Positions 27,233 through 27,529 of a stretch of DNA of 64,000 bases are shown in pieces; position 1 is the stretch's first letter, and every line of letters begins with the position of its first letter. This stretch comes from Escherichia coli (lineage in GTDB: Bacteria > Pseudomonadota > Gammaproteobacteria > Enterobacterales > Enterobacteriaceae), in NCBI RefSeq assembly GCF_044647545.1, contig NZ_CP172818.1, one strand, 5' to 3'. The notes beneath the pieces were generated by a model that saw nothing but the letters and a program-made list of their open reading frames with translations, had not been told where the DNA came from and did no database searches. The position numbers and the translations under genes were made by a program.

Positions 27233-27309
27233 CGCGGGGTGGAGCAGCCTGGTAGCTCGTCGGGCTCATAACCCGAAGGTCGTCGGTTCAAATCCGGCCC
27301 CCGCAACCA
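27233..27309 (+). tRNA. metZ: Initiator tRNA-fMet (anticodon CAT)
   Basis: 77-nt sequence CGCGGGGTGGAGCAGCCTGGTAGCTCGTCGGGCTCATAACCCGAAGGTCGTCGGTTCAAATCCGGCCCCCGCAACCA, encoded CCA end, C1-A72 mismatch typical of initiator tRNA. Confidence 0.95.
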
Positions 27310-27342
27310 ATTAAAATTTGATGAAGTAAAGCAGTACGGTGA

Positions 27343-27419
27343 CGCGGGGTGGAGCAGCCTGGTAGCTCGTCGGGCTCATAACCCGAAGGTCGTCGGTTCA
27401 AATCCGGCCCCCGCAACCA
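27343..27419 (+). tRNA. metW: Initiator tRNA-fMet (anticodon CAT)
   Basis: Identical 77-nt copy, 110-bp period. Confidence 0.95.
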
Positions 27420-27452
27420 ATCAAAATTTAATGAAGTAAAGTAGTACGGTGA

Positions 27453-27529
27453 CGCGGGGTGGAGCAGCCTGGTAGCTCGTCGGGCTCATAACCCGAAGGT
27501 CGTCGGTTCAAATCCGGCCCCCGCAACCA
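27453..27529 (+). tRNA. metV: Initiator tRNA-fMet (anticodon CAT)
   Basis: Identical 77-nt copy, 110-bp period. Confidence 0.95.

Follow-up and report, generated by a model that had tools for sequence, protein, structure and literature searches.

Described Initiator tRNA Loci and the metV Island Site

In Escherichia coli, the metZWV operon contains three genes for identical tRNAfMet1 molecules with m7G46, and metY encodes tRNAfMet2 with A46; most of the cellular initiator tRNA comes from metZWV, and the level of this tRNA tracks gene copy number (PMC3017606). The metY gene, located upstream of nusA-infB, shares with the array described here the same initiator tRNA species and function, but in K-12 it occurs as one gene at a different locus, and it carries A46 where metZWV has G46 (PMC3017606). 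In K-12 MG1655, metZWV (b2814-b2816) is flanked by mltA upstream and amiC downstream, and its genes are annotated in RefSeq as 'tRNA-initiator Met(CAU)'. The gap between metV and amiC is only 73 nt in K-12, whereas the lineage to which the sequence analyzed here belongs has a five-gene island at this place. The metV gene is a known island site, as PAI-CFT073-metV, with its conserved c3405-c3410 gene set, is found there (PMC2831201).

Three Identical tRNA Genes in a Tandem Array

We analyzed a stretch of 64,000 nucleotides of E. coli DNA, hereafter referred to as the window. The array under study is composed of the following elements:

27233-27309, + strand: tRNA-Met(CAU) copy 1, metZ, tRNAfMet1, 77 nt with the CCA encoded (ARAGORN, Rfam, K-12 identity, and a cloverleaf with position 1 unpaired)
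27310-27342, + strand: spacer 1, 33 nt, ATTAAAATTTGATGAAGTAAAGCAGTACGGTGA, equal to K-12 spacer 1 (sequence comparison)
27343-27419, + strand: tRNA-Met(CAU) copy 2, metW, tRNAfMet1 (ARAGORN, Rfam, K-12 identity)
27420-27452, + strand: spacer 2, 33 nt, ATCAAAATTTAATGAAGTAAAGTAGTACGGTGA, unlike spacer 1 at three positions (script comparison)
27453-27529, + strand: tRNA-Met(CAU) copy 3, metV, tRNAfMet1 (ARAGORN, Rfam, K-12 identity)

ARAGORN found three tRNA-Met genes, all on the + strand, with the anticodon cat at position 35 in the three of them, and each gene scored 61.4 bits against the Rfam model RF00005, for which the gathering score is 29. Tandem Repeats Finder reported one array at 27231-27531, with a period of 110, a copy number of 2.7, 98% matches, a score of 581, and no indels. 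A script comparison showed that the 77-nt tRNA bodies were identical in the three copies, and that the two spacers differed only at positions 3 (T/C), 11 (G/A), and 23 (C/T). Three exact copies of 77 nt cannot have arisen by chance. The first-pass annotation of this DNA had reported three identical initiator tRNA genes in 110-bp tandem repeats; ARAGORN, Rfam, Tandem Repeats Finder, and the script placed them at exactly the same coordinates. The tRNA calls, which that annotation had left to be confirmed, were thus borne out by ARAGORN and Rfam, and its description of identical bodies with 33-bp spacers unlike at three positions was reproduced by the script.

Initiator Identity of the Three Genes

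The sequence of the genes was inspected for the elements that set initiator tRNA apart. C1 faces A72, leaving no Watson-Crick pair at 1:72, and the 3' end reads ...CCCCGC-A-ACCA; the predicted cloverleaf had position 1 unpaired, and positions 2-7 base-paired to the 3' side of the acceptor stem. Both sequence and fold gave a D stem, GAGC/GCUC, in which the pair A11:U24 is present. This purine 11:pyrimidine 24 combination is a defining feature of bacterial initiator tRNA. The anticodon stem, UCGGG/CCCGA around the loop CUCAUAA, provides G29:C41, G30:C40, and G31:C39, again from sequence and fold, and the three G:C pairs of the initiator anticodon stem are described as conserved in PMC3017606. 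The variable loop contains G46, read in GAAGGUCG, and this corresponds to the metZWV type and not to the metY-type A46.

The three 77-nt genes were base-for-base identical to those of K-12 MG1655 metZWV, and no difference from the K-12 operon was found in the initiator identity elements of any of them. Because of this identity, the initiator signatures, and G46, the genes were assigned to initiator tRNAfMet1, and not to elongator tRNA-Met or tRNA-Ile2. We are close to certain that the array is the E. coli metZWV operon, i.e., three tandem, identical copies of the gene for tRNAfMet1, the major initiator tRNA, and no result spoke against this identification. Formylation by Fmt and direct binding to the P site with IF2 would be expected for the encoded molecules, given their identity to K-12 tRNAfMet1.

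Comparison with K-12 and with Other E. coli Genomes

The likeness to K-12 extends beyond the tRNA bodies: the period of 110 nt and spacer 1 are the same, mltA lies upstream and amiC downstream, and the segment 27192-27232, which begins with the proposed -35 hexamer and ends just before metZ, was identical in the alignment. The differences include a small number of SNPs located farther upstream than that hexamer, and spacer 2, which in K-12 is ATCAAATTTGATGAAGTAAAAGCAGTACGGTGA and in the window is ATCAAAATTTAATGAAGTAAAGTAGTACGGTGA; the two versions are separated by two substitutions and a compensated pair of 1-nt indels. The array has mltA on one side and the amiC-argA-recD segment on the other, as annotated in K-12, 50579417, TUM22762, and IMT16316. 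The earlier reading of this locus as a normal metZWV organization therefore holds, with bodies equal to K-12 metZ, metW, and metV and the synteny mltA, three tRNA genes, amiC; the comparison with K-12 metZWV that it called for gave identical genes, the same spacer 1, and another allele of spacer 2.

A database search with the left side of the window, covering positions 3000-27530, showed that this segment, including the array and both spacers, matches no fewer than 12 independent complete E. coli genomes in a single piece with 100.0% identity, among them FDAARGOS_497, IMT16316, Ecol_881, and ECONIH1. Since this identity spans 24.5 kb in independent complete genomes, the array is neither an assembly duplication nor new. 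In the closest natural genomes, both the copy number and the order at the array site agree with the window. Of 5,426 complete E. coli genomes, all but one had a matching metZWV locus, and the promoter-plus-array query, 27150-27532, had at least 99% identity in 435 of these 5,425. The spacer 2 allele of the window matched that of ST648-like genomes exactly. The array is the classic metZWV operon, here in a natural allele that is common; it is already known, and nothing about it is new.

For the copy number, we sampled 60 genomes evenly spaced down the ranking of the 5,425 matching ones: three copies were annotated at the locus in 55, two copies in 2, and one copy in 3. Three copies are the norm, with occasional contraction, and this variation, counted from annotation, fits a contraction via recombination between the 110-nt repeats. 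Strains with two annotated copies were ampC_0069, NC101, and ACN002, and those with one annotated copy were ETEC1721, GF153, AVS0193, and strain ST648; the apparent copy-number variants among complete genomes include NZ_CP046396.1, NZ_CP047057.1, NZ_CP122868.1, and NZ_CP008697.1.

Two other explanations of the array were weighed against these results. The CAU genes could encode elongator tRNA-Met, or tRNA-Ile2, which is read as lysidine-AU, and ARAGORN, which reports just 'tRNA-Met (cat)', cannot tell these molecules apart from the initiator. However, the mismatch of C1 with A72, the row of three G:C pairs bordering the anticodon loop, and the A11:U24 pair are all present, and the sequence equals that of K-12 metZ, metW, and metV, annotated as initiator genes, so that we give this assignment next to no credence. 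Equally close to nil is the chance that the triple array is an assembly artefact generated by the spurious duplication of a single tRNA gene. The perfect identity of the three bodies and the one or two copies annotated here in some complete genomes would agree with such an artefact, but the spacers are unlike at three positions, the same array with the same spacers was found in the at least 12 independently assembled genomes that match at 100.0% over 24.5 kb, and three copies are both the majority state, in 55 of the 60 sampled genomes, and the state of the K-12 reference. The earlier statement that the array is not an assembly duplication stands on this exact recurrence and on the sampled copy numbers.

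Proposed Promoter, Terminator, and Expected Expression of the Operon

The elements proposed to govern transcription of the array are located as follows:

27192-27219, + strand: predicted sigma-70 promoter of metZWV, with the -35 hexamer TTGCAT at 27192-27197, a 16-nt spacer, and the -10 hexamer TATAGT at 27214-27219
27530-27575, + strand: place of the native intrinsic terminator of metZWV, which G loss has destroyed in the window (folding)

The putative -35 hexamer is preceded by an A8 tract at 27173-27180, and the -10 hexamer is followed by the GC-rich stretch GCGCATCC. The segment 27198-27232 equals the K-12 homology arm tgaaaacgcgagcggagtatagtgcgcatccacgga, which served in deleting metZWV (PMC3017606). 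Of the two published promoter-down mutations, one affects a T in the -10 box and the other a G just 5' of it (PMC3017606), and the assignment of TTGCAT and TATAGT as the metZWV promoter, proposed from the sequence, fits both of them. The consensus scanner made no promoter call upstream of metZ, and the -35 hexamer matches the consensus at 3/6 positions only. The same scanner called no terminators; the loop of the native terminator is over its limit.

Folding of the native terminator of IMT16316 gave -20.9 kcal/mol with a z of -4.96, followed by U7, and the K-12 equivalent gave -11.1 kcal/mol, also followed by U7. The native terminator is unlike that of K-12 because the island separates metV and amiC in this lineage. 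At the terminator site of the window, folding gave just -1.7 kcal/mol, with a z of -0.34. We attribute the absence of a terminator to the corrupted block that begins there, described below, and not to the strain, and it is not to be taken as biology.

Following published K-12 work, from which the promoter assignment, the co-transcription, the processing, and the dosage role are all carried over, one precursor would be transcribed from a single promoter located about 15-40 nt upstream of metZ, and it would be cut at the 33-nt spacers to yield three 77-nt tRNAs with genome-encoded CCA ends. Once methionylated and formylated, these molecules would bind the ribosomal P site directly and start translation. 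The three copies would set the dose, with metZWV as the main supply of the cell's initiator tRNA.

The Intact Island between metV and amiC

In IMT16316, the intact island between metV and amiC measures 5,566 nt and has five genes, all on the - strand: a PRD antiterminator, a PTS EIIC, a MalY/PatB protein, a KpsF/GutQ isomerase, and a phosphoglycerate dehydrogenase. The island was found between metV and amiC in about 1,578 of the 5,426 complete E. coli genomes, and it is intact in IMT16316, ampC_0069, and 50579417. Judged from the text of PMC2831201, this five-gene island probably corresponds to c3405-c3410 of PAI-CFT073-metV.

Within the intact island, no integrase is annotated, and no copy of the last 16-25 nt of metV was found on either strand with 3-5 mismatches allowed. 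A classical tRNA-integrating island was rejected as a description of this segment, which has neither an integrase nor a second copy of the tRNA 3' end.

A Deletion-Corrupted Copy of the Island Downstream of metV

Downstream of the array, and outside the operon, the window contains the following block:

27530-31642, no strand assigned: anomalous block of 4,113 nt, a deletion-corrupted copy of the island (alignment to the IMT16316 island)

The first-pass annotation had taken the array as the left edge of an anomalous block, and this was upheld, as identity to natural genomes ends at 27530, one base beyond the CCA of the third tRNA gene, and then collapses. The block is almost free of G, with a GC content of about 0.28; over 28001-31000, the GC content is 0.26-0.31 and the GC skew about -0.8. 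The reference for its alignment was the island of IMT16316, a genome with flanks that match the window almost exactly. The block and the island have a common subsequence of 4,082 of the 4,113 block bases (99.2%), with the order kept, and at the aligned positions only 23 substitutions and 8 inserted bases were found. Relative to the intact island, the block falls short by 1,453 nt; 26% of the island bases are missing, and these are mostly G, as shown by the loss of each base in the alignment to IMT16316:

G: 880 of 998 missing
T: 315 of 1,601 missing
C: 227 of 1,234 missing
A: 39 of 1,733 missing

The few G that were kept depended on their context: 30 of 61 remained in CGA, 28 of 102 in TGA, 1 of 241 in NGC, and 7 of 227 in AGN, and all 8 in NCGAA. 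They were not clustered along the block, with 13 adjacent kept pairs observed versus 11.5 expected. The loss of T and C climbs toward the right end. Damage sets in 1-4 nt past the CCA of metV, and the last deletion falls some 14 nt short of the stop codon of amiC, so the damaged interval is essentially the whole accessory segment. There was no ORF above 105 aa in the block, and all five island genes are destroyed. When the block was sought in the 5,426 complete RefSeq E. coli genomes, none contained it; intact islands came closest, at 76.5% identity. To the right of the block, the flank of 32,358 nt aligned to IMT16316 with 0 mismatches and 1 gap.

Read against the IMT16316 island, the block is a deletion-corrupted copy of a known island, the one that ST648-like E. 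coli carry at this site, and not a foreign or hypermutated element. Since it shows selective removal of one base from one strand, almost no substitutions, and near-perfect flanks, we conclude that the corruption lies at the level of the sequence record and is not biology. Evolution cannot yield this pattern, nor can any mutational process known to us. The G-poor sequence belongs to the corrupted neighboring island, and the tRNA locus itself does not have this property.

The opposite explanation is that the block is real DNA and the product of biology, either strand-specific hypermutation or the arrival of a foreign AT-rich element at a tRNA, with the array as its boundary, e.g., as an attachment site. 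The start of the block 1-4 nt past a tRNA 3' end, the record of metV as an island site (PAI-CFT073-metV, PMC2831201), the extreme and strand-asymmetric composition, and the context-dependent retention of G (8 of 8 kept in NCGAA, 1 of 241 in NGC) would all speak for it. Nevertheless, 99.2% of the bases form a subsequence of an island that is intact in relatives with 100% identity, and the block is therefore not foreign; the changes are single-base deletions and not substitutions, a pattern beyond evolution or deaminase-type mutagenesis; five genes are destroyed, and none of the 5,426 complete genomes has the block; the flanks are near-perfect, with 100.0% identity on the left and 0 mismatches with 1 gap in 32,358 nt on the right; and the island has neither a copy of the tRNA 3' end nor an annotated integrase. 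We therefore consider a biological origin very improbable. It is likewise most unlikely that an almost G-free block of 4.1 kb is physically present in a living strain, whether by strand-specific removal of G (C on the coding strand) or by deliberate synthetic replacement, with the tRNA 3' end as the boundary.

Three descriptions of the damage were tried and rejected. G-to-A hypermutation of the deaminase-like kind, suggested by the composition, did not agree with deletions in the place of substitutions and with a block 1,453 nt shorter than the island. Poor quality of the whole assembly was incompatible with 100.0% identity in the left flank and with 0 mismatches and 1 gap in the 32,358 nt of the right flank. 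Uniform random deletion was discarded, as the retention of G is strongly dependent on context.

As for the source of the corruption at the record level, base calling, gap filling, reference guidance, or other processing are all possible. Inside the block, an islet at 31319-31354 has retained its G. Over 36 nt, with 1 mismatch, it is similar to the metV terminator of strains lacking the island (K-12/ST540 type), and it is less like the diverged remnant found at the same place in ST648-like genomes. This islet hints at an influence of an island-free reference sequence on the interval. Together with the confinement of the damage to the accessory segment, it may hint at a process that treats "core" and "insert" differently, and this we offer as speculation.

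Taken at face value, the block would lead to false claims of a foreign AT-rich island, of hypermutation, and of the loss of five genes and of a terminator. It merits a data-quality flag, which guards against over-interpretation, and the exact reference for examining it is the metV-amiC island of IMT16316.

Other Features of the Window

Rfam also detected small RNA genes in the window, which corresponds to the stretch of the E. coli chromosome running from CsrB past GcvB to OmrA/OmrB:

4116-4475, - strand: CsrB
22705-22910, + strand: GcvB
60007-60094 and 60210-60291, - strand: OmrA/OmrB pair

These are full length, at their expected chromosomal positions, and ordinary. The sole difference from IMT16316 in the 32,358-nt right flank is a C run at 39002-39007, 6 long versus 7 in IMT16316, and this change splits recB into two ORFs on the - strand, 36366-39116 and 38927-39916. 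The same 101-nt sequence around the C run was found in at least 8 other assemblies, including RM14723, 2013C-3181, and CFSAN004176; it represents either an error in sequencing a homopolymer or a slippage frameshift that has recurred in recB. The segment 13001-15000 has a moderately low GC content, 0.43-0.45, and its coordinates map to fucA, the fucA-fucP intergenic region, and part of fucP in IMT16316; it has the look of unremarkable coding or regulatory sequence.
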